64,000 nt of DNA from a virus, in the UHGV virus genome UHGV-0038498, one strand, 5' to 3'. The notes under the pieces are model-generated. The model made no database searches. It was not told the origin of the DNA and saw only the letters and a program-made list of their open reading frames with translations. The position numbers and the translations under genes were made by a program. Shown piece by piece: positions 31,633 to 48,725 of this stretch. Within the stretch, counting starts at the first letter, position 1; the number at the start of each line of letters is the position of its first letter.

Positions 31633-31639
31633 GGAAAAT

Positions 31640-31837: not shown

Positions 31838-31944
31838 TAAATTTGCTGAGTGGTTGGTTTTATATTCTCATGTTTTACGTTGGTGCAAATTTTCCGTATT
31901 GGATGGGATGGTCAACAACTGCATTTGGATTTTATACTCCCTGA
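31834..31944 (+). CDS. Hypothetical hydrophobic microprotein (36 aa)
   Basis: MINLLSGWFYILMFYVGANFPYWMGWSTTAFGFYTP; ATGA overlap. Confidence 0.35.
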   Translation: MINLLSGWFYILMFYVGANFPYWMGWSTTAFGFYTP

Positions 31945-31952
31945 GGTGAATT

Positions 31953-32168
31953 ATGAAAATTTTTAAAGATGTAAAAGTTGGCGAAATTTTTTGCTTAGAT
32001 AGTGGTGATCAGTTAATTCGTATTTCACCTCTTAAGAGCACTAGCGAGAAAATGACAGTTAATGCTACTTTAGCAAACAACAGCAATGAACGTTTCTGTA
32101 TTGAAAATGATACTGAAACTTATACCGTAGAAGAGTTTTGGGAATTGAGCGTCGACTGCGACGATTAA
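31953..32168 (+). CDS. Hypothetical protein
   Basis: 71 aa ORF with GAGGTGAATT upstream. Confidence 0.45.
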   Translation: MKIFKDVKVGEIFCLDSGDQLIRISPLKSTSEKMTVNATLANNSNERFCIENDTETYTVEEFWELSVDCDD

Positions 32169-32228
32169 TTTATCGGGCCGTATGTATTCATGCGGCCTTG
32201 GAGTAGAAAATAATTAGAGGAAATTAAC

Positions 32229-32684
32229 ATGAAATATATGACTGTTACTGATTTGAATAATGCAGGCGCAACTGTTATTGGTACAATCAAGGGCGGTGAA
32301 TGGGTTTTTGGAACTCCGCATAAAGACATTTTGTCTAACCCTGGATTTTACTTTTTAGTGAGCAAATTTGGTGGTCCATTTGATAGTCCGTGTGTATCTG
32401 CACGATTTTATGTAGGTAATCAGCGTTCTAAGCAAGGATTCAGTGCAGTTCTAAGTCATATTCGTCAGCGTCGGTCTCAGCTTGCGCGTACTATTGCAAA
32501 TAACAATGTTCCATACACAGTATTTTATCTTCCTGCTTCTAAGATGAAACCTCTGACGACGGGATTTGGAAAAGGTCAGTTAGCTTTAGCGTTTACTCGT
32601 AATCATCATTCTGAGTATCAAACACTTGAAGAAATGAACCGTATGTTGGCTGATAACTTTAAATTTGTTTTGCAGGCATATTAA
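32229..32684 (+). CDS. ndd: Nucleoid disruption protein Ndd
   Basis: 151 aa [68 protein letters not shown]...; T4 Ndd. Confidence 0.9.
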
Positions 32685-32764
32685 TGAGTAATTTCCATAA
32701 CGAACATGTGATGCAGTTCTATCGTAACAATCTTAAAACCAAAGGCGTCTTCGGACGCCAGTGA
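32684..32764 (+). CDS. stp: Stp peptide (26 aa; inhibitor of type I restriction that activates the PrrC anticodon nuclease)
   Basis: [26 protein letters not shown]; start overlaps ndd stop (TAATG); matches the T4 Stp sequence I recall. Confidence 0.78.
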
Positions 32765-32771
32765 GGAAAAT

Positions 32772-32930
32772 ATGAATATCGCAAAATTATTAGGAGTTAT
32801 TTCATTTGTTTGTTGGATAGTAGCATGTGTTTTAACTATCTGTATCGATGCTAGCAGTGTGTTTTCACAAGCTTTAGCCCAGGGTATGTGTGCATATTTA
32901 ACATTTGTGTTGTTATCTACTAATGATTAA
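32772..32930 (+). CDS. Small membrane protein (52 aa), possibly the ac (acridine sensitivity) homologue
   Basis: MNIAKLLGVISFVCWIVACVLTICIDASSVFSQALAQGMCAYLTFVLLSTND; SD GTGAGGAAAATA. Confidence 0.45.
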   Translation: MNIAKLLGVISFVCWIVACVLTICIDASSVFSQALAQGMCAYLTFVLLSTND

Positions 32931-33063
32931 GAAAATCTTGGGCTATTCATTAGCCCTTGCTACTTTATTGGTAGCACTATATTATGGAGTAATGTTCGGA
33001 TTAATTCAAGTCGTGCTTTTCATTTCTGATGTTATTATGGCACTACATTCACTAGTATGGTAA
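32923..33063 (+). CDS. Hypothetical hydrophobic microprotein (46 aa)
   Basis: MIKKILGYSLALATLLVALYYGVMFGLIQVVLFISDVIMALHSLVW; overlaps previous ORF end. Confidence 0.35.
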   Translation: MIKKILGYSLALATLLVALYYGVMFGLIQVVLFISDVIMALHSLVW

Positions 33064-33067
33064 ATTT

Positions 33068-34396
33068 ATGCAACTGAATAATCGCGATTTAAAAAGTATC
33101 ATTGATAATGAAGCATTGGCTTATGCTATGTACACGGTTGAAAATCGTGCTATCCCAAATATGATTGATGGATTTAAGCCAGTTCAACGATTTGTTATTG
33201 CTCGAGCTCTTGATTTGGCACGAGGAAATAAAGATAAGTTTCACAAACTCGCTTCTATTGCAGGCGGTGTAGCAGACCTTGGATATCATCATGGTGAAAA
33301 CTCTGCACAAGACGCGGGTGCTTTGATGGCTAACACTTGGAATAATAACTTTCCTTTGTTAGATGGTCAAGGAAATTTTGGTTCTCGTACCGTTCAAAAA
33401 GCAGCGGCAAGTCGTTATATTTTTGCTCGTGTAAGTAAAAATTTCTATAACGTATATAAAGATACTGAATATGCTCCGGTACATCAAGATAAAGAACACA
33501 TTCCGCCTGCTTTCTATTTGCCTATTATTCCTACTGTTCTTCTTAACGGTGTTTCCGGTATTGCAACTGGTTATGCAACTTACATTCTTCCTCATAGTGT
33601 TTCTTCTGTCAAGAAAGCTGTACTGCAAGCTCTTCAAGGAAAGAAAGTAACTAAACCGAAGGTAGAATTCCCAGAATTTCGCGGTGAAGTCGTTGAAATT
33701 GACGGTCAATATGAAATTCGTGGAACGTACAAGTTTACTTCACGAACTCAAATGAATATCACTGAGATTCCATATAAGTATGATCGTGAAACTTATGTGA
33801 GTAAAATCTTAGACCCGCTTGAAGATAAAGGCTTCATTACGTGGGATGATGCTTGTGGTGAGCATGGTTTTGGCTTTAAAGTTAAATTCCGTAAAGAATA
33901 TTCTTTGAGCGATAACGAAGAAGAACGCCATGCAAAAATTATGAAAGACTTCGGGTTGATTGAGCGTCGTTCCCAGAATATTACTGTTATTAATGAGAAA
34001 GGAAAGCTGCAAGTTTACGATAACGTAGTTGATTTAATCAAAGACTTCGTTGAAGTTCGTAAAACTTATGTCCAAAAACGAATTGATAACAAAATCAAAG
34101 AAACTGAATCGGCATTTCGTTTAGCCTTTGCCAAGGCGCATTTCATTAAGAAAGTAATTTCAGGTGAAATTGTTGTACAAGGTAAAACTCGTAAAGAACT
34201 GACCGAAGAACTTTCTAAAATTGATATGTATTCTTCTTATGTTGATAAACTAGTTGGAATGAACATTTTTCATATGACTTCCGACGAAGCAAAGAAACTT
34301 GCTGAAGAAGCTAAAGCTAAAAAAGAAGAAAACGAATATTGGAAAACTACTGATGTAGTTACCGAATACACTAAAGATTTAGAGGAAATCAAATGA
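33068..34396 (+). CDS. 52: DNA topoisomerase II medium (GyrA-like, DNA breakage-reunion) subunit gp52
   Basis: 442 aa MQLNNRDLKSIIDNEALAYAMYTVENRAIPNMIDGFKPVQRFVIARALD...; T4 gp52 length and sequence. Confidence 0.92.
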   Translation: MQLNNRDLKSIIDNEALAYAMYTVENRAIPNMIDGFKPVQRFVIARALDLARGNKDKFHKLASIAGGVADLGYHHGENSAQDAGALMANTWNNNFPLLDGQGNFGSRTVQKAAASRYIFARVSKNFYNVYKDTEYAPVHQDKEHIPPAFYLPIIPTVLLNGVSGIATGYATYILPHSVSSVKKAVLQALQGKKVTKPKVEFPEFRGEVVEIDGQYEIRGTYKFTSRTQMNITEIPYKYDRETYVSKILDPLEDKGFITWDDACGEHGFGFKVKFRKEYSLSDNEEERHAKIMKDFGLIERRSQNITVINEKGKLQVYDNVVDLIKDFVEVRKTYVQKRIDNKIKETESAFRLAFAKAHFIKKVISGEIVVQGKTRKELTEELSKIDMYSSYVDKLVGMNIFHMTSDEAKKLAEEAKAKKEENEYWKTTDVVTEYTKDLEEIK

Positions 34397-34542
34397 GTCC
34401 ATTCATTGGTATTACAAGCGCTGCATTAGTATCCGGTGGCATTTTACTGGCGGGTTTAGGTGTTGTTCCTGCCGTAGCAGGAGGTCTTCTTGCGTTCGGA
34501 ATTCAACGTGTTATCATGACAGTTATCACAGTCATGCAGTAA
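34393..34542 (+). CDS. Hypothetical glycine-zipper membrane microprotein (49 aa)
   Basis: MSPFIGITSAALVSGGILLAGLGVVPAVAGGLLAFGIQRVIMTVITVMQ; ATGA overlap with gene 52 stop. Confidence 0.4.
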   Translation: MSPFIGITSAALVSGGILLAGLGVVPAVAGGLLAFGIQRVIMTVITVMQ

Positions 34543-34547
34543 TTTTA

Positions 34548-34574
34548 GGGAGAGCCGAGGCTCTCCCTTTTTTA
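34548..34574 (+). terminator. Rho-independent terminator (GGGAGAGCC-GA-GGCTCTCCC + TTTTTTA)
   Basis: 9 bp perfect stem followed by T-run. Confidence 0.72.
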
Positions 34575-34594
34575 TTTCAAAAATTTTTTCACAA

Positions 34595-34630
34595 AACGGT
34601 TTACAACCAAAGCATACTGTGGTACTATAC
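34595..34630 (+). promoter_or_regulatory. Early promoter for motA (-35 GTTTAC 34599-34604, -10 TACTAT 34623-34628)
   Basis: GTTTAC-N18-TACTAT; member of the repeated cassette. Confidence 0.55.
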
Positions 34631-34669
34631 AACTATCAACTACTGATACAGAATTACGGAGATTAGAAA

Positions 34670-35305
34670 ATGTCTAAAGTAACTTACATCATCAAAGCTT
34701 CTAACGATGTTCTGAATGAAAAAACTGCTGCGATTTTAATTACCATTGCTAAGAAAGATTTCATTACAGCTGCAGAAGTTCGTGAGGTGCATCCAGATTT
34801 AGGTAACGCAGTAGTTAATAGTAATATTGGGGTATTGATTAAAAAAGGCCTGGTGGAGAAATCTGGTGATGGATTAATCATTACAGGCGAAGCTCAGGAT
34901 ATTATTTCAAATGCAGCAACTTTATATGCGCAGGAAAATGCTCCTGAACTACTGAAAAAACGAGCAACTCGTAAAGCTCGTGAGATTACTTCCGATATGG
35001 AAGAAGATAAAGACTTCATGTTAAAACTTTTAGATGAAAATGGATTTGTTCTTAAAAAGGTTGAAACTTACCGCAGTAACTATCTTGCTATTTTAGAAAA
35101 ACGCACTCACGGAATTCGTAATTTTGAAATTAATAACAATGGAAATATGCGAATTTTTGGATACAAAATGATGGAACATCATATTCAGAAATTTACTGAT
35201 ATCGGAATGTCATGTAAAATCGCTAAAAACGGTAATGTGTATCTTGACATTAAACGCTCGGCAGAAAACATTGAAGCAGTAATCACCGTAGCATCTGAAC
35301 TGTGA
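34670..35305 (+). CDS. motA: Middle-transcription activator MotA
   Basis: 211 aa MSKVTYIIKASNDVLNEKTAAILITIAKKDFITAAEVREVHPDLGNAVVNSNIGVLIKKG...; almost identical to T4 MotA. Confidence 0.95.
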   Translation: MSKVTYIIKASNDVLNEKTAAILITIAKKDFITAAEVREVHPDLGNAVVNSNIGVLIKKGLVEKSGDGLIITGEAQDIISNAATLYAQENAPELLKKRATRKAREITSDMEEDKDFMLKLLDENGFVLKKVETYRSNYLAILEKRTHGIRNFEINNNGNMRIFGYKMMEHHIQKFTDIGMSCKIAKNGNVYLDIKRSAENIEAVITVASEL

Positions 35306-35315
35306 GGAATAAATA

Positions 35316-35645
35316 ATGAACAAGTTAGAAATTGTTAATGAACTTCGTCGTTGTGCAGAACCCACTCAAGAGGGGTGGGACATCTGGTACCATGGAGCTT
35401 ATCTTGGAACTATCGTAAAGATTAAGACTGGTAAATACATGATTATTCGTGAAAGTAAAGATGCTCCAGTAGGTATTCGCAATAATTTTATGGCGGCGAT
35501 AAGTTCCTTTACGGATTCAGCTTATGAAATTTACCTTGCTGATTATAAAGAATTCCAGGAATCTCAACCAGTTATTCGCTCAATTGGTGTTAACAAAGCT
35601 CAACAGAAAACTTTGTGGCAGCGTATTAAAGGATGGTTTAAATGA
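35316..35645 (+). CDS. Hypothetical protein (motA.1 position)
   Basis: 109 aa ORF. Confidence 0.5.
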
Positions 35646-36103
35646 ACCCATTTATTAATCGTTTAAAAATGCTGAATGTTCCTTTATCTCGTGAAACTCC
35701 AGAAAGTCTTGTTGAAAAATTTAAAGCGCATGGTTATAAATGCACAGAAGAAGATATTCTGAAAGAAGTTCCTGAAATCTGTTGGCAGTCTGCATATTGG
35801 GACGAAAATCAAAAATATCAACGACGAATTGTTTGCGCAGCCAACCGTTTTAAATTAAAAGATGGACGAACTCTTGTTATTCCAGGTGCTCGTCATTATT
35901 CTAAAGATATGGCAGAAGTTTTAGATGTAGTTAAACCTCAATTAGTTACTCAACAAGTTTGTGATGATGACCAAGGGTTTATTGACCAATATAGTAATTA
36001 TTGGACCCGTGAAGAAGCAATGATTATTGCAACTTACGCTGGACAAGTACGTATTGAACGTGGTGGTAGTGAAAAAGAACTTTACTCTGAGGACCTTTAC
36101 TAA
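35642..36103 (+). CDS. Hypothetical protein
   Basis: 153 aa ORF, ATGA overlap. Confidence 0.5.
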
Positions 36104-36399
36104 TGAATATTAAAAAGTTTCAAATTGATGGAATTAAGAATCAAATCCAGGCACTGGAATATGCCAATAAAATGATGTCAACTAATTGGGGAATTTATGC
36201 CAATGAACCGGCATTTCAATTCTGTAATATGGAATTCACCAAAAAGCTCGTAGGAAAAGATTATGTATGTCCATTTAGTTCCCCAATAAATGGAATGCTA
36301 AAACCTGCTTTACGCGATCTTTATATTGCGATGAACGAAGAAATGATAAAAGAACTAAAACGTCAACTGAAGGTGATTCAATTTGGCCAGGGAAATTAA
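36103..36399 (+). CDS. Hypothetical protein
   Basis: 98 aa ORF, overlapping start/stop with neighbour. Confidence 0.5.
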   Translation: MNIKKFQIDGIKNQIQALEYANKMMSTNWGIYANEPAFQFCNMEFTKKLVGKDYVCPFSSPINGMLKPALRDLYIAMNEEMIKELKRQLKVIQFGQGN

Positions 36400-36601
36400 T
36401 TCAAAATCCGATTATTTTAATTCTCTCAATGATAAAGATAAAAATCTAATACGGCATTTTATTGTTGAGATGGGATATACTGACACACGTGATTTAAGAG
36501 AACATATATTTGAATGTGGTGTAGCTAAAAAGTTTTCATTCACATGCAAATGTTTGAGAGAGGTAATTCAGCACTATGAACAATTTAGTCGCAAAACATA
36601 A
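36383..36601 (+). CDS. Hypothetical protein
   Basis: 72 aa ORF; start codon uncertain. Confidence 0.4.
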   Translation: MAREINSKSDYFNSLNDKDKNLIRHFIVEMGYTDTRDLREHIFECGVAKKFSFTCKCLREVIQHYEQFSRKT

Positions 36602-36684
36602 TTTTAATAAAGCTTCTATCCATAAAGATAAGAAGAAAGCGTTTAAAGAATCTAATCGCAAACAGAAACATAAGGGGAAGGTCT

Positions 36685-36963
36685 ATGATTATTGATTCTC
36701 AGTCTGTGGTTCAATACACAATCAAAATTGATATTCTAGAAAAGCTATATAAGTTTCTACCAAATTTATACCACTCAATTGTTAATGAATTAGTTGAAGA
36801 ACTACATCTCGAGAATAATGATTTCTTGGTTGGAACTTATAAAGACCTCTCAAAAGCAGGATATTTTTACGTAATTCCAGCTCCAGGAAAAAGTATTGAT
36901 GATGTATTAAAAACTATAATGATTTATGTCCTTGATTATGAAATTGAAGATTATTTCGAATGA
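36685..36963 (+). CDS. arn: Arn, anti-restriction nuclease (inhibitor of McrBC)
   Basis: 92 aa MIIDSQSVVQYTIKIDILEKLYKFLPNLYHSIVNELVEELHLENNDF...; matches T4 Arn length and position before asiA. Confidence 0.8.
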   Translation: MIIDSQSVVQYTIKIDILEKLYKFLPNLYHSIVNELVEELHLENNDFLVGTYKDLSKAGYFYVIPAPGKSIDDVLKTIMIYVLDYEIEDYFE

Positions 36964-37112
36964 GTCATAATCTTGAAAAAGTAATCGAGCATAATGTAGC
37001 TCAGGAACGTAAGTCGTTCAAGGAATTCGTAGAAAAAATTTTTGAAGAAAATACCACAGACCAGTTTACAAATCAAGCGTCTGATGATATTATAGTAAAG
37101 TCAACTAATTGA
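36960..37112 (+). CDS. Hypothetical small protein (50 aa)
   Basis: ATGA overlap with arn stop; MSHNLEKVIEHNVAQERKSFKEFVEKIFEENTTDQFTNQASDDIIVKSTN. Confidence 0.35.
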   Translation: MSHNLEKVIEHNVAQERKSFKEFVEKIFEENTTDQFTNQASDDIIVKSTN

Positions 37113-37124
37113 GTGGTATAGTTA

Positions 37125-37397
37125 ATGAATAAAAATATTGATACAGTTCGTGAAATTATTACTGTTGCGTCTATTTTAATTAAATTTTCCAGAGAAGATA
37201 TTGTTGAGAATCGTGCTAATTTTATTGCATTTCTGAATGAGATTGGAGTAACGCATGAAGGTAGAAAGTTGAATCAGAATTCATTCCGTAAAATTGTTTC
37301 TGAATTAACTCAAGAAGATAAGAAAACCCTCATCGACGAATTCAACGAGGGTTTTGAGGGTGTATATCGATATCTAGAGATGTATACGAACAAATAA
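37125..37397 (+). CDS. asiA: Anti-sigma-70 factor AsiA
   Basis: 90 aa MNKNIDTVREIITVASILIKFSREDIVENRANFIAFLNEIGVTHEGRKLNQNSFRKIVSELTQEDKKTLIDEFNEGFEGVYRYLEMYTNK; T4 AsiA. Confidence 0.95.
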   Translation: MNKNIDTVREIITVASILIKFSREDIVENRANFIAFLNEIGVTHEGRKLNQNSFRKIVSELTQEDKKTLIDEFNEGFEGVYRYLEMYTNK

Positions 37398-38054
37398 TTA
37401 TTTAGCCCTTCCTAATATTCTGGCCGCCTGAGCACATATTGATTCAAGGCGGTCATTACTTATATGATCATTTCTATACCAGTACATGGTTATTGTTCCA
37501 GCATAGATATTATCCAAATTGAAATATGGACAACTGTACATGTAATTTATTTCGGGAGTAGGCTTTTTAGTCGGTAAAAAAGCAAATTTTGAGTTGGAAT
37601 AATAATGACGTCCATTTAAATGAACTGCATATTCATCCATAGTTTTATCAACAGGATATCCTCCAAGTGATTTTTCACTTATTGTTGAAGGTAATTTTCC
37701 TTCATATGCTATAATATCAACAAAATAGTTTAAGTTTTTAGGGCGGAAAGAATACACCGCACTAAAGTCTGCCTCAGATGATATATGAACTATCTGGAGT
37801 TGTTCCAGGGCGACAGATTCAAAGCGTGCATTTCTTTCCTTTTCAATAATTTCACTGTATGTTTCATACTTTGATTGCTTATAGTACTCAAAGAAACTAT
37901 CTCCCCTATACCAAACAATCGCCATTATAAACAAAAGAATTACGACAGCTACACGGGAAGCAAGAACTTTCCCGGTAGCGTTATCTTTGAACAAGCGATC
38001 TAGAACACCAAACAGAATATCAGAGGGCGAAAATGATATTCTAGGTGCTGCCAT
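37398..38054 (-). CDS. t: Holin T
   Basis: 218 aa MAAPRISFSPSDILFGVLDRLFKDNATGKVLASRVAVVILLFIMAIVWYRGDSFFEYYKQSKYETYSEI...; single TM with large periplasmic domain; T4 T; SD AAGGAGGG. Confidence 0.92.
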   Translation of the reverse strand: MAAPRISFSPSDILFGVLDRLFKDNATGKVLASRVAVVILLFIMAIVWYRGDSFFEYYKQSKYETYSEIIEKERNARFESVALEQLQIVHISSEADFSAVYSFRPKNLNYFVDIIAYEGKLPSTISEKSLGGYPVDKTMDEYAVHLNGRHYYSNSKFAFLPTKKPTPEINYMYSCPYFNLDNIYAGTITMYWYRNDHISNDRLESICAQAARILGRAK

Positions 38055-38085
38055 AGACCCTCCTTTTAAGGATATTTATTCAAAA

Positions 38086-38877
38086 TTATACTCTTGCACC
38101 ATATATTGTACCAACTTTAGTCCAAGTTGGAGCATTACCAGTAACAGCTTTACCTGCTGCGCCACCCGAGTGAACAGTTCCTCCAGTACCACCTTGAATA
38201 TATGAAGATTTGCCCGCAGCCCCCAAATCTCCACCATCTCCTCCATGGTGAACCCCAGAAACAGTACCTTTACCAGGAGCAGAAATTGTAGCGGCAGATG
38301 CTGCCGATGCGCTGCCGCCTGCTGCACCCGCTGCACCAAATGGACGACCTCCGCCGCCACCAAATATCATATCCATTTGGGGGAAAGGATGATATCTAGC
38401 ACCAGCGCCGCCACCACCGCCACCACCGATAATACCATTATTGTTTATTCTTAAACGAGTTCCAATTCCGTTATTTATTGCAGTTCCTCCTGCTCCACCA
38501 GCAGAGTTACTTCCGCCATTTCCTCCTCGACCCAATACATGAACACCACTATTAATATTTAAGGTAACATATGCATTAGTTAATGAGCTAGGAAAATCTA
38601 AGCATGGTTGACCTGTCGATGAAGAAACGATATTGCCTGTAATTGTAATAACAACAGGAGTACTTCCTTGGGCTTTTATCCAATTTATTAGTGTGTCTTT
38701 ATTATAAGAATTGCTAGCACCAATGCTGTAATATACTTCTTTAGATTGTCCGGCCATTGAGCTCATCCAACCAGGAACTGAAACACGAACTGCTTTCATT
38801 GCAGCATCCATCCAACGTTGTCCAGTTTCATTCACGGCAGATTCACCAATCCAGCCAGGAACACCTACAATTGCCAT
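38086..38877 (-). CDS. 38: Receptor-recognising tail-fibre tip adhesin gp38 (T2-type, glycine-rich motifs)
   Basis: 263 aa; conserved N-terminus MAIVGVPGWIGESAVNETGQRWMDAAMKAV... and C-terminal half with poly-Gly blocks (GGGGGGGAG, GGGGRPFG, GGTGGT) separated by variable segments. Confidence 0.85.
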   Translation of the reverse strand: MAIVGVPGWIGESAVNETGQRWMDAAMKAVRVSVPGWMSSMAGQSKEVYYSIGASNSYNKDTLINWIKAQGSTPVVITITGNIVSSSTGQPCLDFPSSLTNAYVTLNINSGVHVLGRGGNGGSNSAGGAGGTAINNGIGTRLRINNNGIIGGGGGGGAGARYHPFPQMDMIFGGGGGRPFGAAGAAGGSASAASAATISAPGKGTVSGVHHGGDGGDLGAAGKSSYIQGGTGGTVHSGGAAGKAVTGNAPTWTKVGTIYGARV

Positions 38878-38888
38878 TAAAAATCCTT

Positions 38889-38906
38889 AGAGGGCCGAAG
38901 CCCTCT
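38889..38906 (-). other. RNA hairpin with UUCG tetraloop between genes 37 and 38 (AGAGGGC-UUCG-GCCCUCU), immediately 5' of the gene 38 SD
   Basis: Perfect 7 bp stem on the minus-strand transcript in the 30 nt intergenic gap. Confidence 0.45.
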
Positions 38907-38907
38907 T

Positions 38908-41900
38908 TTACATAAGTTTAGATTCAAGTTCTTTTACACGAGAAGAAAGTGTTTTCACAGCTTCAACCAGAAGAGCAATCTGGGCTTGAGAAGAAACAGT
39001 GAGTATTTTATTACCCTTGCTATCTTCTGTTTCATGGACAGCTTCTGGTAAAACGTCTTGCAACGTTTGAGCTATAATACCCGCTTCGGTTTGAACAGGT
39101 TCACCGCCTATATATTCAGCTTTGTCATAGATTAAACCATCAAGTTGCTCAACCCTTTCGAGCGCATTTTTAATAGGTTTAAAATTAGATTTCAAGCGAA
39201 CATCAGAACGAATATAAACGTTAGGAGCATTGACGTTTTTCTCGGAATAAACTTCACTTGAGGTGAATCTAACAACTTTAACGTTGTTCGCCCACGCTTC
39301 TAAAAGCCCATCGCCTACTTGTCTAAAACCAGTATCGCTATCACCAATTGCAATGGAGTTACCACCCCAACCGTTGGAGGTATTTACACCAAATGCTCTC
39401 GCAGATCCGCATGATAGTATAGGAGCATAAAATGTTCCATCCATGTCAAAAGTCCAACGAGCCTGTTGCCCCGATGGGTTGTCGCCACGCATGCGAATAA
39501 TACCTTGACGCCAAGTACCAGAAACACCTAACCATCCAAATTCAAATGATTGACGATAGCCCGCGTCAGTTAAAAAACTGTATCCAGAAAATAGCGGGTA
39601 ATAAGCTTGACTTGTCTTGGAAATGCCACCCGTATTCGCTAAGAATGCAGAATTGTCGCGAGTCACATTTGAAATAGCAGAAAAGCTAACACTCCATTGT
39701 CCGGCAGCTTTAACTCGTGAATTAATGTTTCCATTAATAGTAATATCTTTATCAAAAGAAGTATTTTCGCCAAGACGAACAGTACCAGCAGTCATATCGA
39801 TTGAAAACGGTCGTTTTCCATTCCAATCGCCTTCAGTTGCTTTATTATCGCCGTCTGAAGAGTTTTTGTCAGTCAGTAAAATATAGAAGTTTCCACCGTC
39901 ATTTCGAAATAAAACGGAATTAGAACCTGATCTATCAGAATTACTTGTAATACGAATACCAGTTTGGTTATTAATAGCAATTTCTGACTCTGCTACATAA
40001 CGCTTAGGCCCGTTAGGCGTTTTTTGCAAGTTATTCAATATACTTGCAACTTGACCTTGAATTGCCGTCTCAGGAAGTTCAACTGCAGTTTCTGTGGCGC
40101 CGGATGAATCTGAAGCAAATATTTGATTAACATTAGCGTTCGGTGTGGCATAATATGAAACAGCCAACGCCTGGGCGTATGTACCTACATTCACATAGAT
40201 ATCATAAACATCGCCTGATGTATTAACAGTGGCAACGTTTTTAATACCTTGAGCAACATCCAACGACCAAACAACAGCATTAATGCCTTTAGGATTGTTG
40301 TTAGAAGTTCTTAAAACAATTTGCGAAATAACACACTGGTGAGGAGTGGAAACATTATACCCGTTCCCGCCTGAAATTTCAAATTTAATAGTTGAGGTTG
40401 ATTGCGGCATTGTCACCGTTGCTAATTTGTACCAACCGCCAGTACCTGAATAAGAAACCATTCGGGTATTGACTTTACGATCTAATGTCGAGTTCAAGTT
40501 AGCAAAGTTAGGTAATGAACCACCCGTGATATTACCATCAGTACCAATACGAACATTACCAGCACCTAATTTACCAGGAGAGTAAAAATCACCGTTTTTA
40601 TTAAATTCCCAACCTAAATCCTTTATAATCGCGCCAGTAGAACCGCCATCACCACCTTCATGATAATGAACTCTAAAATTACCACCGTTAATTAAAGTAC
40701 CAATAGAATAGCAACTATTATTTTGTACGTATCTCTGTTTAACAATTGGAACATACGTACTTGTATCTGTGCGATTAATATTCATATAGAACGGAGCACG
40801 AACGTTTTCATTATTTTGTGAAGCAAATGAACCAGCCCCCGCAGGTCTAACAGCATCAGTACATTCTACATCGATGTACGACGACTGACCTAACTGCATA
40901 CGGTAATTAGGAGAAATACGACTATGACTAGTAACAACAACAAGTTTATTATCGTTGTCTACAGTAATCATATTGCCGCCTCTGCCGTCATCGCCTAACG
41001 TGACAGAATGACGCATTTGTACCATACCATTATTAAGACTAATACTTAATGGGCGGAGATTACTTATTCCACCACTTTCACCAGCATCTTTAGGAGTCGG
41101 GATAATATGTAATGATGCTTCTGAACGACGGAAAATAGCACCATATTCAGCATTCCAAATTCTTAATGCATCTGCTGTTCCACCAAATTTAGCTTGTCCG
41201 TTTACAGATAATCCATTATTAACATTTAAAGAAGATTCAGTTGTAATAGAACCAGAAGCAACAATACTGCCTGAAGTTAATAAACCACCATTAACTCGAA
41301 ATTGAATAGGTCCGACAGTAGAACCTGATCCGGGAGCAACTCGCTGAGAATAAAAATGGTAACCTTGCCCATCTGATACTTCAAAAACTGTTTCACGGGA
41401 ACGATCGCCAGATGCGTTAAATGAATTACCCCACGCTTTAACAGTTACATAGCTTTTATTCTGCCCAGCACGAGTACCACCTTCCCACAAAATTTGCTTA
41501 GTGCCATCAACCGTAGTAGTTGGAGCGAATGTTAGCCCAGCAGTAGAATTATTAGCTGCTAAATATACACCATTATATATTGAAAGCTGCTTAGTGGATG
41601 TAATACCGCCATCAGCATAAAACATTACATTATTTGCACCGGTTACTATTTTAAGAATACCCGGGTTAACTTCCATGCCTTCTTGGGTATTAATATTAGT
41701 TTTGCCTTTACCACGGAAATAGTGGTTCATTTTTCCGCCTGAGTTATAGCCAATATGTGTCTGGCCGTCTCCAGCAGTGTTTTCATCAGCCTGTGTTTGA
41801 ACTGATAAAAATGCAACATTCGTTCCAGGCATAGTCCATGTTGTACCTTGATCTTCTGAGCGACCAAATATACCTTTACGAGTACTACGGAAACTATCAG

Positions 41901-42891
41901 GCGTAATAGATGCAACGGAATAACCTCCACCAACTAAATCATAAACACCTTGTTTAATATATTTCAGACCAGTTACAGTGTCACCGAGAACAAGATACTT
42001 ATCACCCATTACCCCAGTATTTCCATAATCACTAGACGGGAAACCCGTAGTGAATGTACCTAATGCAAGGCTATTACGGCCAGCTATTCGGCCATCATTA
42101 CGAATACCATATTGTTTAGATTGAGGAGTATTACCAGTCCACCATGACATTTCATCAGCTTGTCCAGTCTGAGCTGTACAGATTTCATGCCACATGGTTC
42201 CGCCTGATTTAGCACGAACTTTACGAAGATAGTTTACTCCGTTAGTTTCACCGGTTCCAGGATAAACATACTGAACCAATGATTGTGAATCGTATTGTCC
42301 AAAGGCTTTAGAATCATGATTAATTAAATTAACACTAATAGTTGGTGTACTAATAGAAGTTAAAGCAGTTAACTTGCGTGCCTGGAAAATACCACCATCA
42401 GTAGAAATGAAATGAAATTCTGAATTTTGAGCCCCTGCTGCGGTTCCTTGACGAACACGCATTGTGATTACGCCTTCATTTTCAGACTGTGGTTTTGAAT
42501 ATAAAACACCTCTCTCCGATCCATCTGTATTTTCAAACCAAAGATGGGCATTGGAAGTATCATTTGTTGCTCTTGCGTAAAATGACCCTCGCATAGATCT
42601 GAAAACTTTTGCAGTTATGCCATCAGTAGAACCAATAGGTCCATTTACGGTCATTCCACCTGTTTGTACATAATCGCCATTTAACCTCAAAAGACCATTG
42701 ATAGTTACATTTCCATCAATTTGACCGCCTTTAGCAATACCTAGATCAATAATATTTCCTGAATCATCTTTAGTAAAAATTGTTCTATCTTTTAAGTTTA
42801 TAGCCAATTCACCTTCGGCTAATACTGAAGCAGCAGGACGTGCACCTGCGGTTTTGCTTCTTTTAAATTGTATTTGTTTTAAAGTAGCCAT
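38908..42891 (-). CDS. 37: Long tail fibre distal subunit gp37 with C-terminal intramolecular chaperone domain
   Basis: 1327 aa; N-terminus [51 protein letters not shown] typical of gp37; C-terminus ...[35 protein letters not shown]...[15 protein letters not shown] resembles auto-cleaving S74-type chaperone domains. Confidence 0.9.
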
Positions 42892-42899
42892 AAGTCCTC

Positions 42900-43565
42900 T
42901 TAATAATAGCCGAAATCTTGAACAGAATCCTTAATTACGATTTGGTCAAATCGCGGAACGTGTGAAGGTTGAGACGCAGGATTCTGCGAGAAAAAGTTTG
43001 GTGCGGTTAAGTTTCCAGTCATAGTGTCTCCTTTACGGAAAACTCTAGAATCCGCATTTGCCGTAACAGTATTTATTGCTCCATCAACATAGTCCTTTCT
43101 AGTAAGGTCATTCACTGCTATAGGAGCAGCCGCATCACTTCTTACTTGACCAGCTGCTGACACAACACCTTTTGTGTTAATATCACCATTACGTGTGTTA
43201 ATTACCACAGTTCGAGCTGCTGAACCTTGTGATGATTTAAAACCAATACCATACCATGAAACAATATCAATATTTGCTGTAGCAAAAGTTGCTGCATCGC
43301 CATTACCTGGATAAATACCGCACGGGTTTGTATTGTTTACAGCATATGGTACTTGAACACCAGCATTAAATGTTACCTTTGACGCAAAAGTACCACCATT
43401 AGCTTTAGAAACGAAATCGTTATCAACAGCTTGTGGTTTATTATATTCTGAATATATTTTAAATGATTTATAGAGTACATCGTCACCGGCTGGATTCAAT
43501 GGAAAATTTCCTTGATGCCAAATGACAGAGCCTCCAGTTGTTGAACCTACTTTTAAATCAGCCAT
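42900..43565 (-). CDS. 36: Long tail fibre distal connector gp36
   Basis: 221 aa [51 protein letters not shown]...; T4 gp36 length. Confidence 0.9.
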
Positions 43566-43588
43566 TGTATGCCCCTTTATTTTAATAG

Positions 43589-43596
43589 TATTTATA
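43589..43596 (-). promoter_or_regulatory. Late promoter TATAAATA (minus strand) for genes 36-37-38
   Basis: Plus-strand TATTTATA = minus TATAAATA, about 25 nt upstream of gene 36 ATG. Confidence 0.55.
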
Positions 43597-43599
43597 AAG

Positions 43600-43625
43600 A
43601 AAAAGGGAACCCGAAGGCTCCCTCA
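43600..43625 (-). terminator. Terminator-like hairpin after gene 35 (minus strand GGGAGCC-UUCG-GGUUCCC + UUUUU)
   Basis: 7 bp stem (one G-U pair), UUCG loop, T5 run on the minus-strand transcript. Confidence 0.55.
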
Positions 43626-43627
43626 AT

Positions 43628-44743
43628 TTATACTTCTCTAAATTCTTGCCCAAACACTTTACCAGTTTTAGACGATGCTTGCGTAGGAAGTACCATTATA
43701 TCCGGAGGTGAAGCAGATTCACAGATATAATTAACACGAATGCCATTGACGCCAAATTCAGCGGGTTTCGAAATACCTCCATTTCTTGACACTTCAGAAA
43801 AGCTTAAATTTCTCATGCCACCTTGACCAGCTTGTGCTGTTCTTTGTGCATATATCGTAAATCCTACAGCGTTTTCTGGAACAACTACATAATCTTCCTT
43901 TAATTCCCAAGACCCAGCTTGCCCGGTAAACTCAGCTTGCGTCGAGGAAATATATCCATTAGATGCGTTATAAAAACGGATGGATATATTTGTAGTTCCA
44001 AGAGCAAGTAAATCGGCATCAGCATATAACTGTGCTTTAAGATAAAGAACATCGCCAGGGATTAAATTATAGTCAGATAATTTACTTATAGCAGCCGAAG
44101 TCGGTAGACGTGCAATTTCGTTATTAGTTCCACCAACTGCCGACATAAATTGCTCAACGCTTTCGTATGTTCTTTTAGGAAATCCCGTAGCTCCAACGTC
44201 TTCTAAACTGTCAAATACAACATCTAAAATAGTTTGATAGTCATCTGTGCTTTTTCTATTACTTAGTTTAACATGCTCCAATGCAATAGCTCTTTTAGAA
44301 GAAGTGTAAAAAGCAGCATATGATACGTCAAATCTTGACAATATAGAATCAGATGGAAAAGCAGACGTTCCTGCGGTTCTCAACCAAGATACTACTTCAG
44401 GAGGAAAATTAACCTTTCCGCTAGTTAATATAGCAACAAGTCTGTTATTCGTCAAAGAATTCATGAAACTAACAAAAGCAGCCGATGTAGTATCATTTGA
44501 AGCCGAAAAAGCATATGACTTACTATCAACTAATGCTCCGGTGGAAGGGTCAAAAACTCTTAAATGAAGTCCTGCGCTAAATGTTTGACTTCCAACAGGA
44601 TTATCCTGAAATTTAACATATGGTCCTGCCGTAGAAAGCGGGCAAGAACCCGCTATACTTATTTTATATCTTACTGAATTACTTTCCGATAAAAATGGCG
44701 TTTGGACATATCCTTGTCCAAACTCTGCCATAAATTTTTCCAT
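43628..44743 (-). CDS. 35: Long tail fibre hinge protein gp35
   Basis: 371 aa MEKFMAEFGQGYVQTPFLSESNSVRYKISIAGSCPLSTAGPYVKF...; T4 gp35 length and position. Confidence 0.85.
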   Translation of the reverse strand: MEKFMAEFGQGYVQTPFLSESNSVRYKISIAGSCPLSTAGPYVKFQDNPVGSQTFSAGLHLRVFDPSTGALVDSKSYAFSASNDTTSAAFVSFMNSLTNNRLVAILTSGKVNFPPEVVSWLRTAGTSAFPSDSILSRFDVSYAAFYTSSKRAIALEHVKLSNRKSTDDYQTILDVVFDSLEDVGATGFPKRTYESVEQFMSAVGGTNNEIARLPTSAAISKLSDYNLIPGDVLYLKAQLYADADLLALGTTNISIRFYNASNGYISSTQAEFTGQAGSWELKEDYVVVPENAVGFTIYAQRTAQAGQGGMRNLSFSEVSRNGGISKPAEFGVNGIRVNYICESASPPDIMVLPTQASSKTGKVFGQEFREV

Positions 44744-44751
44744 AATACCTC

Positions 44752-47700
44752 TTATTCAATCCATTCAAATTTAACAGATTTATTCACTGGGTCAGGAATA
44801 ATGCGAACATTACCAATTCGTAAGAAATCACGAATAGTAAGATTCCCCATTGTAGCATTATCAGATGGTAAAGCACCGATATCAGACGGCTGAGGAGGGT
44901 TACCTCCATCAAATACCTGAACAAAACTCGACCAAGAGTTTTTGGTTTTCTGCCATGTACGCGTCCAGCGAGTGGTACGTGCTTCTGGAGTCGTTGGATA
45001 AGTAATCCAATCTTGGTAAAGCGAATCAAGTGTGTTACCAAACTGAGTCAATGTACCAGGAGATTTAACTTCTTCACCACGTTCTAAGTATGGAAGTCCA
45101 GTCACTTCATTAGTTTTTTCAACCATTTTAAAATAACCTGGGAACTGGTTATAAGTAGCTGAATCATTAATGTCAATTGACCAGAATCCTACAGTATCAG
45201 ATGTTGGCGCACGGGTATATAAGTCAGATGTTTTAGTGCCCTGAGAACGAATTCTCGAGTTAACAGTTAAACCACCTGAATTTATAGTAGCACCTTTGGC
45301 AATGATTAAGCTTTCACCAATCGTTACTTGACCGGATGCATTGTTAATAGCTAAAGGACGTAATCCATTAAATCCGCCAGTCTGATCACCCGATGCAGTA
45401 AGCATAAAATAGGTGTTAGCAGCATCATTACGAATAAAGAATCCATAGTCGCCATTTATTGCTCTGAAAGCATTTGCAGACTTGCTGATGAATTCACCAT
45501 TGGCTGTAACTGAACTACCAAATGTTGCAACGCCGTTCGCATTCAAAGAACCCGAAGCATTAACATTTATTGGCATTACAGTACCATTGATACTAAACGT
45601 TATATTCCCAGCTTTATTGCGTTGAGAATAAAAGTGATTAGACGTTTCATCACCAACTTCAAATACAGTAGAACGTGTTGTATCTGAACCGCCACCAAAC
45701 TGATTTCCCCAAACTCTGATAGTCATCGTCTGTACTGGGTTAGTTCCAGTTTGAGGTCCTTTCTCAAAAATCAGACGAGTTGCTGTTCCAGTATTAGAAA
45801 TAGTTAATGTGCTGTTTGCCGAAACTGATCCGCCAAACGTAGCAGTACTAGATGATACAAGAGGGGCACTCAGATTCGTTTGTTGGGTTAAGGTTAGTGA
45901 ACCATTAACCGTCTGTGCAATATCCCTACGAATGAATTGAGATGAATCTAGACCATCCAATAAATTTGTATCAGCAGCTTTTGCTTTTAATGGCAAATAA
46001 TTTGCTAATACACGGTTTAATTCGTATGGTGATACTGCATAGCTATTTTTCTCGTATAATTCTAATGACTGGGTTGAACCAACTGTATCATTACCAACGA
46101 ATGTAATTGAACCAGATGAAGTTTTAACAAAGCCTCTTATCGCAGTAGTAGCTGCCCAAGTAGGTTCACTCTGCACAATCCATTTTAAATTTTTTGGAGA
46201 TACAGCAGTATTTGCTGACGTTCCAGTAACAGTTTCAGACTGGGTTGCAACTTTAATAACACCTTCCTGCGCTTCAGTAGATTTAGTACCTAAAAGCTTT
46301 TTAGGAGTTATTAAAACATTATCTAATGTTCCTGCAGCAGCTTCAACTTGTGTAGCCACACGAAGTGTACCACGCTGTGTCTCATTTGCTTCAAGAATAT
46401 TAAGGGTATAATGGTCCCAGAGAGTTCCTGATTCAACTAATCCAGATAGAGCAACAACAGAAGTACGATCAGTACTATTAAATCTAGTTTTAATTTTTAA
46501 TGGTGTAGAGATACGAGTATCGTCGACGCCTGCGTCGAATTCAACTTGTGTAGCAATTTCAGCTATACCACTTAAACTTTCAGTTGCTCTACGGTCATTT
46601 AAAGTTTTAGGAGTGACTGCACGAGTATAATCAGTTCCTGTATTAACTTCACTTTGTGTAGCAATTTCAATTAAACCAATTCTTCCATCAGTTGATGTCT
46701 TTTTATGTAACGTTTCTGGCGTTACAACCGCATTTGCCCATCCTTCTTGACTCTGTCCAGCAATTACTTCACTTTCAACTGCTAAAATTACTGCACCTTG
46801 TTGCGTTGGAGTAGCTTTATACTGATCCAGAGCTTTAGGCGAAACAACTAAATTATTAGTGTTTTTATTATAAACGTTTGTACCATTTAATTCACGACTA
46901 GAAGCTGGAGTAGCTCCTGCGGTAGATACAAAGGTTACAATACCAGATAATGACTCAGAACCTTGACGAGCTTGAAGCTTTTTAGGAGTGATGATTGTAG
47001 TATCATCAGTACCTGCATTAGTTTCCTGTTGCGTAGCAATTTCAGCAACACCTCTACGAGTTTCTGTAGCAGTTCTTTCATTCAGCTTTTTAGGAGTGAT
47101 GATAATATCATCAGCAAAAGAGAATGTGGTGTTCTGATTCACTTGAGCAGTAGTTGCTATTCTTGCGATACCTCTACGAGTTTCTGTAGCAGTACGGTTA
47201 GCTAATGTTTCTGGAGTAATTGCTAATTCTTTTTGTGGAGAATTTTCTAAATCGACATTAGCTTGCGCTTGTGTAGCTAAAGCAATCACGCCTAATCTTG
47301 CTCTAGTAGAATCGTTTAAAGAATCAACTCTTTCTACGGTTGGAACGTTTTGTTGTACAACCCAGTATTTTCCATCAGAATCTTCTATATAAGCAAGTTG
47401 TAAAACTGGAACATAATTAGTTTCACCGTTAAAAACTAATTCTTGGACAGTCACCCATTCAGCTTCAGGTGGATACTCTGAACGTTTTGGGAATTGCAGC
47501 AATTGAACTGAAGAAGCAATTTTATCTTCACCGGCAGCTTTGATTTTAACTGTTTGTCCTTTTCTCATGTAATTCATGGAAATTTTAACAGTATCACCAA
47601 CAGAAATATTAGTTGGAAGCTGAAGCTCAATTGTTTGAGTTGTTCCGTTATTCGCACCAAATACCATAACTTCTTCATTTGGACGAATGTTTGAATTAGT

Positions 47701-48621
47701 CGTTATGATACGTAAACGTGCTTTACTGTCCCCGTCAAATAATCTCCACAATTTCTCATTATCATCATACATCAAGAAACCGTCAATCGATGTACGGCCT
47801 TCAATGGAATGAGTTCCATCTTCTTGCACTGATGTCGTTTCATCATATGTAGTAACAATTGTATGATAAAGAGGGTTTAATTTATCCAAATCGACGAAAT
47901 TAATAATATCGCCGTGATTAGCAAATCTCGGAAGTTTAATATTTATCGGTGCAGCAGAAGTAAATCTACGTACGATAAAATCGTTGGATTGTGCTTGATA
48001 AGTATTCGCTGGTGTTACAACTACAGCTTCTCTACTATAATCAGCTACATACATTTGCCACAGACGATTACTAAAAATTAAAACTAACTGTGACTTTGGA
48101 TGAGTCATTAGTACTGAACGTACTTGCTCGCCTCTGAAGTTTACAATACTTTGCACTGGAGCTACAATTAAAACTTGGTTAACTCCAGGTTTTCCTCCAA
48201 TATCTTGGAGAACTATAGTATCACCGTCAATTGGGGTAGATGGTAAAGTAAATGTAATATCATTACCAGCTGCAGTGTTAACCGAAATAGCTTCACCGGA
48301 TTTTAATTGATATGAACCAGATGAGACTGTAATCCAGTTAGCATCGGTACGTAATGCTCTCCAGCGTCCGCTATTAAAAGGTCCTGCCGGTTTTGGAATA
48401 TCATTTATAGCAGCCCAAAAGCGGTTATCATAAATGATTACAAAATCTTTTAAATATCCACGAGTTGGATCGTATTGTTGAACTGTGTTTTCTTGAATTA
48501 GGTAATCAACGTTAACACCGTCAGTTCCTACGGCACGATCAGCTAAAGCTACGTTGATTATTTTATCGCCACCTGCGTCCAGACCATCTTCTGCTCTGAA
48601 CTTTCTTTTAATCTCGGCCAT
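44752..48621 (-). CDS. 34: Long tail fibre proximal subunit gp34
   Basis: 1289 aa MAEIKRKFRAEDGLDAGGDKIINVALADRAVGTDGVNVDYLIQENTVQQYDPTRGYLKD...; T4 gp34 length; internal array of about 7 repeats of an ETRRG(I/V)A(E/R)IAT...ITPKKL motif. Confidence 0.92.
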   Translation of the reverse strand: MAEIKRKFRAEDGLDAGGDKIINVALADRAVGTDGVNVDYLIQENTVQQYDPTRGYLKDFVIIYDNRFWAAINDIPKPAGPFNSGRWRALRTDANWITVSSGSYQLKSGEAISVNTAAGNDITFTLPSTPIDGDTIVLQDIGGKPGVNQVLIVAPVQSIVNFRGEQVRSVLMTHPKSQLVLIFSNRLWQMYVADYSREAVVVTPANTYQAQSNDFIVRRFTSAAPINIKLPRFANHGDIINFVDLDKLNPLYHTIVTTYDETTSVQEDGTHSIEGRTSIDGFLMYDDNEKLWRLFDGDSKARLRIITTNSNIRPNEEVMVFGANNGTTQTIELQLPTNISVGDTVKISMNYMRKGQTVKIKAAGEDKIASSVQLLQFPKRSEYPPEAEWVTVQELVFNGETNYVPVLQLAYIEDSDGKYWVVQQNVPTVERVDSLNDSTRARLGVIALATQAQANVDLENSPQKELAITPETLANRTATETRRGIARIATTAQVNQNTTFSFADDIIITPKKLNERTATETRRGVAEIATQQETNAGTDDTTIITPKKLQARQGSESLSGIVTFVSTAGATPASSRELNGTNVYNKNTNNLVVSPKALDQYKATPTQQGAVILAVESEVIAGQSQEGWANAVVTPETLHKKTSTDGRIGLIEIATQSEVNTGTDYTRAVTPKTLNDRRATESLSGIAEIATQVEFDAGVDDTRISTPLKIKTRFNSTDRTSVVALSGLVESGTLWDHYTLNILEANETQRGTLRVATQVEAAAGTLDNVLITPKKLLGTKSTEAQEGVIKVATQSETVTGTSANTAVSPKNLKWIVQSEPTWAATTAIRGFVKTSSGSITFVGNDTVGSTQSLELYEKNSYAVSPYELNRVLANYLPLKAKAADTNLLDGLDSSQFIRRDIAQTVNGSLTLTQQTNLSAPLVSSSTATFGGSVSANSTLTISNTGTATRLIFEKGPQTGTNPVQTMTIRVWGNQFGGGSDTTRSTVFEVGDETSNHFYSQRNKAGNITFSINGTVMPINVNASGSLNANGVATFGSSVTANGEFISKSANAFRAINGDYGFFIRNDAANTYFMLTASGDQTGGFNGLRPLAINNASGQVTIGESLIIAKGATINSGGLTVNSRIRSQGTKTSDLYTRAPTSDTVGFWSIDINDSATYNQFPGYFKMVEKTNEVTGLPYLERGEEVKSPGTLTQFGNTLDSLYQDWITYPTTPEARTTRWTRTWQKTKNSWSSFVQVFDGGNPPQPSDIGALPSDNATMGNLTIRDFLRIGNVRIIPDPVNKSVKFEWIE

Positions 48622-48655
48622 TCTCCCGGGCTCCTATTGTGTTTTCAATAATAAG

Positions 48656-48663
48656 TATTTATA
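48656..48663 (-). promoter_or_regulatory. Late promoter TATAAATA (minus strand) for gene 34
   Basis: Plus-strand TATTTATA about 35 nt upstream of the gene 34 start. Confidence 0.55.
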
Positions 48664-48698
48664 CTTGTTTACTTTAAGATTCGGATGGTATATAATAG
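48664..48698 (+). promoter_or_regulatory. Early promoter for rnh (-35 GTTTAC 48667-48672, -10 TATAAT 48691-48696)
   Basis: GTTTAC-N18-TATAAT; back to back with the minus-strand late promoter. Confidence 0.55.
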
Positions 48699-48725
48699 AA
48701 ATCTCACTAATTGAACGAGGTTCAT

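Follow-up and report, generated by a model that had tools for sequence, protein, structure and literature searches.

[quoted passage not shown] A sequence-only reading had proposed that gp37 ends in an intramolecular chaperone domain, with the aid of which the fibre trimer would fold and which would then be cleaved away before gp38 docks onto the new tip. Our analysis leads to much the same view: residues Ser1229 to Met1327 of gp37 very probably form a C-terminal intramolecular chaperone domain of the Peptidase S74 type, self-cleaving before the docking of gp38. The identity of the domain is established by its sequence and predicted fold. We infer its role as a chaperone, its cleavage and the exact position of the cut, and the order of docking from homologues in T2, S16, T5 pb1 and the K1F endosialidase.

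The gene in question occupies the following interval.

38908..42891, minus strand: gene 37, long tail fibre distal subunit precursor (open reading frame listing; 1327 aa plus stop codon)

This and the other features reported below lie on the minus strand, which corrects the earlier description; the C-terminal sequence quoted there is present as written in the 1327-aa reading frame, the translation of which ends in ...KELESKLM. The precursor has a mass of 142 kDa and matches PHROG 1699 ('long tail fiber protein distal subunit') from end to end. Relative to T2 gp37 it is 60% identical over its full length, while the 70% identity to T4 gp37 is restricted to aa 1-814. Its last 200 residues are identical in phage KFS-EC3. 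NCBIfam offered no model for either gp37 or gp38, and the window in its entirety gave no matches to Rfam or in a tRNA scan.

Within gp37, two features delimit the proposed domain.

38911..39207, minus strand: intramolecular chaperone domain of Peptidase S74 type at the C-terminus, 99 aa (aa 1229-1327), ~10.9 kDa (Pfam, PDB profile, AlphaFold and Foldseek)

39034..39207, minus strand: Pfam Peptidase_S74 core, aa 1229-1286 (model positions 1-58 of 58)

The Pfam family PF13884 (Peptidase_S74, "chaperone of endosialidase") matches aa 1229-1286 with full model coverage (51.1 bits, the gathering score being 22; E 1.7e-13). The resemblance to S74-type chaperones, for which a similarity check had been suggested, is thus clearly detected, and it recurs in the profile and Foldseek comparisons described below. 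The domain is shorter than the roughly 120 residues first supposed, comprising 99 from Ser1229 onwards. The interval originally assigned to it, 38908..39300, does hold the domain but also takes in the stop codon and aa 1198-1228, 31 residues that belong to the predicted mature tip.

A single-sequence search of the PDB with the last 170 residues of gp37 recovered S16 gp37 (6f45_A, E 3e-10), MyRF weakly, and coiled-coil matches to haemagglutinin HA2 (E 0.2-1) which we regard as spurious. A profile built from 11 diverse homologues extended these results, matching 6f45_A (1.5e-28), 7dc3 (3.5e-12), 8jov (5.5e-10) and 3gud (1.8e-3); the GA-1 protein was recovered by the profile and not by the single sequence, and the K1F endosialidase (3gw6) by fold alone. 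The S74-type domain sits at the extreme C-terminus of gp37, and the tail-fibre homologues in PHROG likewise match at their C-termini. Such a module occupies the C-terminus of fibre proteins in 1524 phage records, and T5-like fibres, at 36-41% identity, are among the tblastn matches to the gp37 chaperone domain.

The predicted structure points in the same direction. An AlphaFold model of a 115-aa construct containing the chaperone domain, based on a profile search yielding 718 homologues, reached a pLDDT of 89.3 and showed the succession helix, two strands, helix, two strands and long helix. The best ten Foldseek matches to this model in the PDB were all IMC/ICA domains (7dc3, 3gw6, 3gud), the top match being 7dc3 with a TM-score of 0.68. 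A 170-aa monomer model of the tip together with the chaperone domain, which rested on six near-identical fragments from a single 140-aa query, attained a pLDDT of 42.5 and was left out of the fold search. The last helix of the smaller model is located as follows.

38914..38991, minus strand: long C-terminal helix, aa 1301-1326, its hydrophobic residues in 3-4 heptad spacing (H89-114 in the AlphaFold model of the 115-aa construct)

Reading of the sequence places I1305, L1308, V1312, L1315, V1319, L1322 and L1326 at the 3-4 heptad positions, and the coiled-coil-like tail previously noted is therefore borne out by both the predicted helix and its spacing. By analogy with the T5 chaperone domain, which has a trimeric coiled coil at its centre (PMC4690869), this helix probably forms the trimeric coiled coil of the gp37 domain.

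The N-terminal edge of the domain coincides with the residues expected to carry out cleavage.

39205..39210, minus strand: predicted scissile bond Arg1228/Ser1229, with the Ser1229 codon at 39205-39207 (serine conservation; T5 pb1 equivalent)

39190..39192, minus strand: Lys1234 codon, predicted general base at Ser +5 in S-D-V-R-L-K (conservation; corresponds to Lys1269 of T5 pb1)

39208..42891, minus strand: predicted mature gp37, aa 1-1228, ~131 kDa, ending ...NAPNVYIR (boundary from homologue alignment)

The serine of SDVRLK, earlier described as conserved, is indeed retained in 117 of 118 homologues, while Asp1230 and Lys1234 are present in all 118, and the motif S-D-x-R-x-K is common to 11 diverse phage fibres. 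Ser1229 is position 1 of the PF13884 model, and the released GA-1 chain (3gud) begins at the serine aligned to it, reading SDERHK. The boundary of mature gp37 was placed by alignment to this chain start and to the cleavage sites of S16 and the fPS phages (PMC7917993). The predicted context in gp37, NVYIR^SDVRLKS, may be compared with DLNVS^SDRRIKK, given for S16 (PMC7917993), and with DVYIR^SDGRLKI, where the site is predicted in the fPS phages (PMC7917993). In T5 pb1, Ser1264 is needed for autocleavage, which S1264A blocks, and in the published mechanism the lysine at +5 acts as base for the serine, giving the dyad Ser1264/Lys1269 (PMC4690869). The published homologues differ on the bond that is cut, which lies either before or after the equivalent of Ser1229.

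In K1F and T5 the active site is completed from upstream, by an arginine of a neighbouring chain (a folding sensor) and by an aspartate in the preceding interdigitated region. Upstream of Ser1229, gp37 has R1208, which is conserved in T2, and R1228; its mature tip is unalignable with those of T5 or K1F.

If the domain is removed, the last strand of mature gp37 would become the docking surface for gp38, and the processed tip would be capped by that protein. Gene 38 lies immediately downstream of gene 37, in the order 37-38-t also found in T2.

38086..38877, minus strand: gene 38, T2/S16-type adhesin, 263 aa (Pfam GP38 PF05268, 3.9e-69; Gp38_N PF21721, 7.3e-18)

38752..38877, minus strand: gp38 N-terminal attachment domain, aa 1-42, with Trp9, Trp22 and Trp37 (Gp38_N match)

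In the PDB this adhesin matches the gp38 of S16 (6f45_D, E 1e-47) and that of PP01 (9v85, E 9e-31), and it shares 75% identity with T2 gp38 over aa 1-148, the first 45 residues showing two differences. Trp9, Trp22 and Trp37 align to tryptophans of S16 gp38, where such residues insert into pockets of gp37 (PMC6851490). The two partners also agree in lock-and-key subtype (T2-, T6- or K3-like), for which a rule pairing gp37 C-termini with gp38 N-termini has been described (PMC3157838): both are T2-like here. On the gp37 side, identity to T2 amounts to 86% in the chaperone domain and 64% over the preceding 100 residues.

Several other explanations of this region deserve consideration. Least credible, to the point of being practically negligible, is that the similarity arises by chance or from a low-complexity coiled coil and that the region is the mere end of the fibre shaft. 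The heptad helix can draw spurious matches, as the HA2 examples illustrate, but the Pfam match falls within the non-helical N-terminal 58 residues of the domain, profile E-values descend to 1e-28, the fold matches are confined to IMC/ICA domains, and the module recurs at fibre C-termini throughout the phage records counted above. The Pfam, profile and fold matches together refute this reading.

There are two further alternatives, each of which we consider very unlikely. The domain may be truly of the S74 type and yet be retained as a permanent trimerisation plug, with gp38 attaching elsewhere or transiently, a proposal favoured by the fact that the sensor arginine and the aspartate of the K1F/T5 type were not located by eye upstream of Ser1229. 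Against it, nothing is missing from the Ser/Asp/Lys motif, which does not vary among homologues, and the 86%-identical T2 domain belongs to a protein reported as cleaved (PMC3157838). The docking surface for S16 gp38 exists only after the chaperone is removed (PMC7917993), and the gp38 attachment domain encoded here is essentially that of T2. In T5, moreover, an uncleaved mutant fibre failed to compete with phage infection, whereas the processed protein did so (PMC4690869). Alternatively, a separate host or phage protease may remove the C-terminus, the S74 resemblance then reflecting only a shared role in folding or trimerisation; the 1986 work on T2 is indeed cited as 'proteolytic processing', with the protease unnamed in that citation (PMC3157838). 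This is difficult to reconcile with the strict conservation of the nucleophile and base, with a predicted fold which matches autocatalytic domains only, or with T5 pb1, in which the change of serine to alanine alone abolishes cleavage upon expression in E. coli (PMC4690869). The S16 gp37 domain is described as autocleaved (PMC7917993). Autocleavage by an S74-type domain, followed by docking of gp38, thus remains our preferred reading, and the sequence itself offers no argument to the contrary.

T4, in which gene 37 has the same position and gp37 is homologous over the first 814 residues, offers an instructive contrast. The C-terminal domain of T4 gp37 is itself the adhesin, and folding of the protein relies on the trans-acting chaperones gp38 and gp57A, T4 gp38 being unrelated to the adhesin-type gp38 (PMC3157838). 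No match to Peptidase_S74 was found in T4 gp37 (1026 aa) even at E ≤ 1, and over the last 99 residues the two proteins are 12% identical. Together with an alignment which extends only over aa 1-814, this sustains the earlier suggestion that the domain is absent from T4 gp37. Conversely, the Collar and Phage_fiber domains (PF07484, PF03335), both found in T4 gp37, had no match in the gp37 studied here. A T4-type tip, comprising a gp37 C-terminal adhesin and a chaperone-type gp38, was considered as a candidate and rejected; the gp38 encoded here is of the adhesin type.

The nearest known systems are those of T2 and S16. T2 gp37 (LC348380, 1341 aa) is encoded in the order 36-37-38-t, which is shared here, as is the sequence NAPNVYIR/SD(I/V)RLKSNFKPI around the predicted cleavage site. 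It differs in that the N-terminal 200 residues of our gp37 are T4-like (the first 100 are 92% identical to T4 versus 68% to T2), in the region of the gp37 mid-tip (aa 800-1100, just 35-52% identical), and in the hypervariable part of gp38. According to PMC3157838, citing Drexler et al. 1986, the gp37 C-terminus of T2 and T6 is removed proteolytically and gp38 then caps the fibre, T2 gp37 being the protein in which C-terminal processing was first reported, in 1986. For S16, PMC7917993 describes autocleavage of the last 113 residues of gp37, which exposes the docking surface for gp38 (structure 6F45, Dunne et al. 2018). Both the chaperone domain and gp38 of S16 are homologous to those described here, but its chaperone domain measures 113 aa as opposed to 99, and the mature tip just upstream of cleavage is alignable in part only.

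More distant relatives share the domain and diverge in its use. At its C-terminus T5 pb1 carries a chaperone domain which contains a Ser...Lys(+5) dyad and a trimeric coiled coil and which cleaves itself once folded (PMC4690869, 2015). Its domain, however, spans 133 aa and bears 50-Å beta-hairpin 'tentacles' (PMC4690869), for equivalents of which the 99-aa gp37 domain is too short, and the cleaved T5 tip itself binds the receptor without an added adhesin. The eukaryotic MyRF ICA domain (7DC3) is the best structural match (TM-score 0.68, 28% identity) and follows the same logic of trimerising and then cleaving itself; in animals it detaches a transcription factor from the membrane of the ER, and it takes no part in the assembly of fibres. 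The K1F endoNF (3GW6) and the GA-1 neck appendage (3GUD) were both recovered by fold, the latter also by profile, but at 14-21% identity, and the proteins that bear them are tailspikes or appendages whose heads are enzymatic or of another kind. These two domains (Schulz et al. 2010) are the founding members of PF13884 and MEROPS S74.

Taken together, these comparisons suggest a course of assembly in which the chaperone domain would align three gp37 chains at their C-termini through the trimeric coiled coil of the heptad helix, and this registration would nucleate folding of the distal, beta-structured tip. Once the tip had trimerised correctly, Ser1229, activated by Lys1234, would attack the Arg1228-Ser1229 bond in each chain. 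The 10.9-kDa domains would then depart, exposing the new C-terminal tip ...NAPNVYIR, on which one gp38 would dock by its helical, three-tryptophan N-terminal domain and provide receptor recognition. The proposal that the trimer folds, cleaves itself and then receives gp38 on its new tip is, by homology to T2, S16 and T5, a well-supported one. There is a slim chance that the arrangement holds something more: that the released 99-aa trimer has a second role, timing or licensing the loading of gp38 or titrating it, or that the short, tentacle-less domain chaperones the last interdigitated turn only, the remainder of the fibre being folded with gp57A. Our data do not suggest either.

Phages of the T2 type ordinarily have a self-cleaving chaperone tail, and this is already known. 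The idea put forward for this locus is correct but not novel, because the arrangement has been shown experimentally in T2 and S16, and its importance lies in annotation and engineering rather than in discovery. The fibre protein of the virion is expected to measure ~131 kDa and end at Arg1228, rather than to be the 142-kDa precursor. Any recombinant fibre or exchange of gp38 must retain the chaperone domain and an NVYIR tip that pairs with the N-terminus of a T2-type gp38. For the family as a whole, T4, the usual reference, is atypical: most T-even fibres use a self-cleaving chaperone domain together with a gp38 adhesin.

The C-terminus of gp37, the distal subunit precursor of the long tail fibre, is an S74-type intramolecular chaperone domain. 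Pfam Peptidase_S74 (PF13884, "chaperone of endosialidase") covers residues 1229-1286 over its whole model (E 1.7e-13; 51 bits, gathering score 22). Dozens of PHROG tail-fibre families match the last 140 residues at their own C-termini. By tblastn these residues occur in 1524 phage records, including T-even gp37, L-shaped fibres of the T5 kind and fibres from phages of Vibrio, Aeromonas, Synechococcus, Thermus and Burkholderia; in one such record the region is annotated "chaperone of endosialidase". A profile of 11 diverse copies, searched against solved chains, retrieved gp37 of Salmonella phage S16 (6f45_A, E 1.5e-28), the intramolecular chaperone autoprocessing domain of MyRF (7dc3, E 3.5e-12), tail fibre 8jov (E 5.5e-10) and 3gud, the chaperone domain that the GA-1 neck appendage releases (E 1.8e-3), whose first residue is the Ser aligned with Ser1229. 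An AlphaFold2 model of the domain, built on a 118-sequence alignment of homologues, was confident (mean pLDDT 89.3); a model of tip plus domain was poor (pLDDT 42). The best ten Foldseek matches in the PDB were all intramolecular chaperone or autoprocessing domains, namely 7dc3 (TM 0.68), 3gw6 (K1F endosialidase) and 3gud, and matches below these were noise (E > 0.3). Chance similarity to S74 is excluded by the Pfam, PDB profile and Foldseek matches, and the resemblance proposed in the sequence-only reading is real on the agreement of all these searches. The homologues also included stand-alone ORFs of 114-170 aa with little beyond the chaperone domain (P0002, P0007, P0009, P0010 and P0015). 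They bear the name "tail fiber domain-containing protein [Escherichia coli]" and lie on contigs of about 166-169 kb, which are probably genomes of T-even phages recorded as E. coli, with a split or incompletely called gene 37.

The window is a segment of a T-even (Tequatrovirus) phage genome. Many T4-like phages of Escherichia and Shigella share 96-98% identity with its first 25 kb. The gene order 34-35-36-37-38-t is that of T2 and T4.

Features of the tail-fibre locus and of the gp37 chaperone domain
Minus strand: gene 34, 1289 aa
Minus strand: gene 35, 371 aa
Minus strand: gene 36, 221 aa
38908..42891, minus strand: gene 37, 1327 aa, with the chaperone feature at its 3' end
38086..38877, minus strand: gene 38, 263 aa
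Minus strand: t holin gene, 218 aa
38911..39207, minus strand: chaperone domain, 99 aa, 10.9 kDa
39205-39207 and 39190-39192, minus strand: Ser and Lys codons of motif S-D-x-R-x-K (S1229-D-V-R-L-K1234)
gp37 aa 1243-1248: helix (AlphaFold2 prediction)
gp37 aa 1253-1258 and 1265-1271: strands (AlphaFold2 prediction)
gp37 aa 1274-1280: helix (AlphaFold2 prediction)
gp37 aa 1285-1289 and 1295-1299: strands (AlphaFold2 prediction)
gp37 aa 1301-1326: long helix (AlphaFold2 prediction)

The C-terminus first read as that of gp37 is exactly the end of the translated ORF. Within 38908..39300 the opposite strand carries no ORF of at least 60 aa, and the whole window (1..64000) yielded 0 tRNA genes and 0 Rfam families at the gathering threshold.

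The domain had been put at some 120 residues. Its C-terminal position stands; its length is 99 aa, because the conserved motif starts at Ser1229, and the interval originally proposed adds 31 residues of the mature tip. An earlier paper on gp37 processing reportedly estimated that roughly 120 residues are removed, which may be where the longer figure comes from. The catalytic dyad is conserved, Ser in 117 of the 118 homologues and Lys, like the intervening Asp, in all 118, in agreement with the conserved Ser proposed in SDVRLK. The suggested coiled-coil-like tail corresponds to the predicted long helix, where the sequence itself shows a 3-4 heptad pattern of I1305, L1308, V1312, L1315, V1319, L1322 and L1326. 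Such a pattern agrees with the T5 chaperone domain, which has a trimeric coiled coil at its centre (PMC4690869).

T4 gp37 (1026 aa) is 70% identical to the window protein over aa 1-814 and unrelated beyond; it has Collar and Phage_fiber domains and no S74 match even at E <= 1, so that the domain was correctly described as absent from it. T2 gp37 (1341 aa) aligns end to end, contains [20 protein letters not shown] and shares 86% identity with the window protein over the 99 aa of the domain. Gene 37 is a three-way mosaic, T4-like at the N-terminus and T2-like at the tip. Residues 1-100 are 92% identical to T4 and only 68% to T2 and KFS-EC3; residues 600-700 are 97% identical to phage KFS-EC3; residues 800-1200 share 32-54% identity with T2 and with KFS-EC3 and have no relation to T4; and the last 200 are 100% identical to KFS-EC3. 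The closest whole gene 37 is that of phage ADUt (about 93-94% DNA identity). The segment that encodes the chaperone domain has the look of a conserved cassette boundary at which fibre tips and adhesins would be swapped. Within the shaft, Pfam Gp34_trimer (PF21446) matches aa 493-617 in two stretches (about 41041..41415, minus strand; E 5.9e-12) and also, though less strongly, the corresponding part of T4 gp37, reflecting the known sharing of shaft modules by proximal and distal half-fibres.

The analysis itself establishes what the domain is, that its catalytic dyad is conserved and of which type the partner protein is; the remaining mechanism is drawn from homologues. In the T5 L-shaped fibre protein pb1, Lys1269 activates Ser1264, S1264A blocks cleavage, an Arg of the neighbouring chain makes cleavage conditional on correct trimer folding, and only the processed mature protein, not the uncleaved mutant, inhibited phage infection in a competition assay (PMC4690869). 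S16 gp37, once trimerised, loses its last 113 residues by autocleavage at DLNVS^SDRRIKK, and the equivalent site predicted in fPS phages is DVYIR^SDGRLKI (PMC7917993). By alignment, the window protein would be cut at NVYIR^SDVRLKS, between Arg1228 and Ser1229, which gives a predicted mature gp37 of ~131 kDa. That the domain is instead kept uncleaved on the fibre is unlikely, given that the dyad is intact and the 86%-identical T2 homologue is reported to be cleaved; cutting by an external protease is likewise unlikely, since S1264A blocks cleavage in T5 and the fold is that of an autocatalytic family. These comparisons support the proposed sequence of folding, self-cleavage and then gp38 docking.

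The partner encoded by gene 38 is an adhesin-type gp38 (Pfam PF05268, 3.9e-69; Gp38_N, 7.3e-18), matching S16 gp38 (6f45_D, 1e-47) and PP01 gp38 (9v85). Its Trp9, Trp22 and Trp37 align with the S16 Trp residues that fill three pockets of the gp37 base in the crystal structure (PMC6851490), and T2 gp38 differs at only 2 positions across the first 45 residues. Such a T2-like N-terminus fits the T2-type tip of gp37, in line with the lock-and-key rule by which gp37 C-terminal subtypes pair with gp38 N-terminal ones (PMC3157838).

A 30-nt spacer separates the gene 37 stop (38908-38910) from the gene 38 start (38877). It holds a hairpin (38889..38906, minus strand; AGAGGGC-UUCG-GCCCUCU, -13.4 kcal/mol) with a 7-bp G+C-rich stem and a C(UUCG)G tetraloop, directly followed by the gene 38 Shine-Dalgarno AAGGA; its z-score against shuffles is only -1.9, 7 of 200 folding equally well. 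Hairpins of this UUCG type are known from the intercistronic regions of T4, and this one may make the gene 37 message more stable or control gene 38 translation. In Klebsiella phage KP182 (OM337876; Jiaodavirus), an S74-bearing fibre protein annotated "L-shaped tail fiber protein" (1..939) precedes a gene labelled "gp38 distal long tail fiber assembly catalyst". A chaperone domain that cleaves itself off is here coupled with the name of a chaperone of the T4 style, and the label marks either a mislabelled adhesin or a mixed arrangement.

The observation made from sequence is thus confirmed, and in gp37-gp38 the window has the long tail fibre of canonical T2 type. Recent papers treat self-cleaving chaperone domains at the C-termini of tail fibres, including those of S16 and T5, as textbook material (PMC7289586), and T4 is the less common type (PMC6851490). 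What the window adds to this known picture is one additional mosaic gp37 allele.
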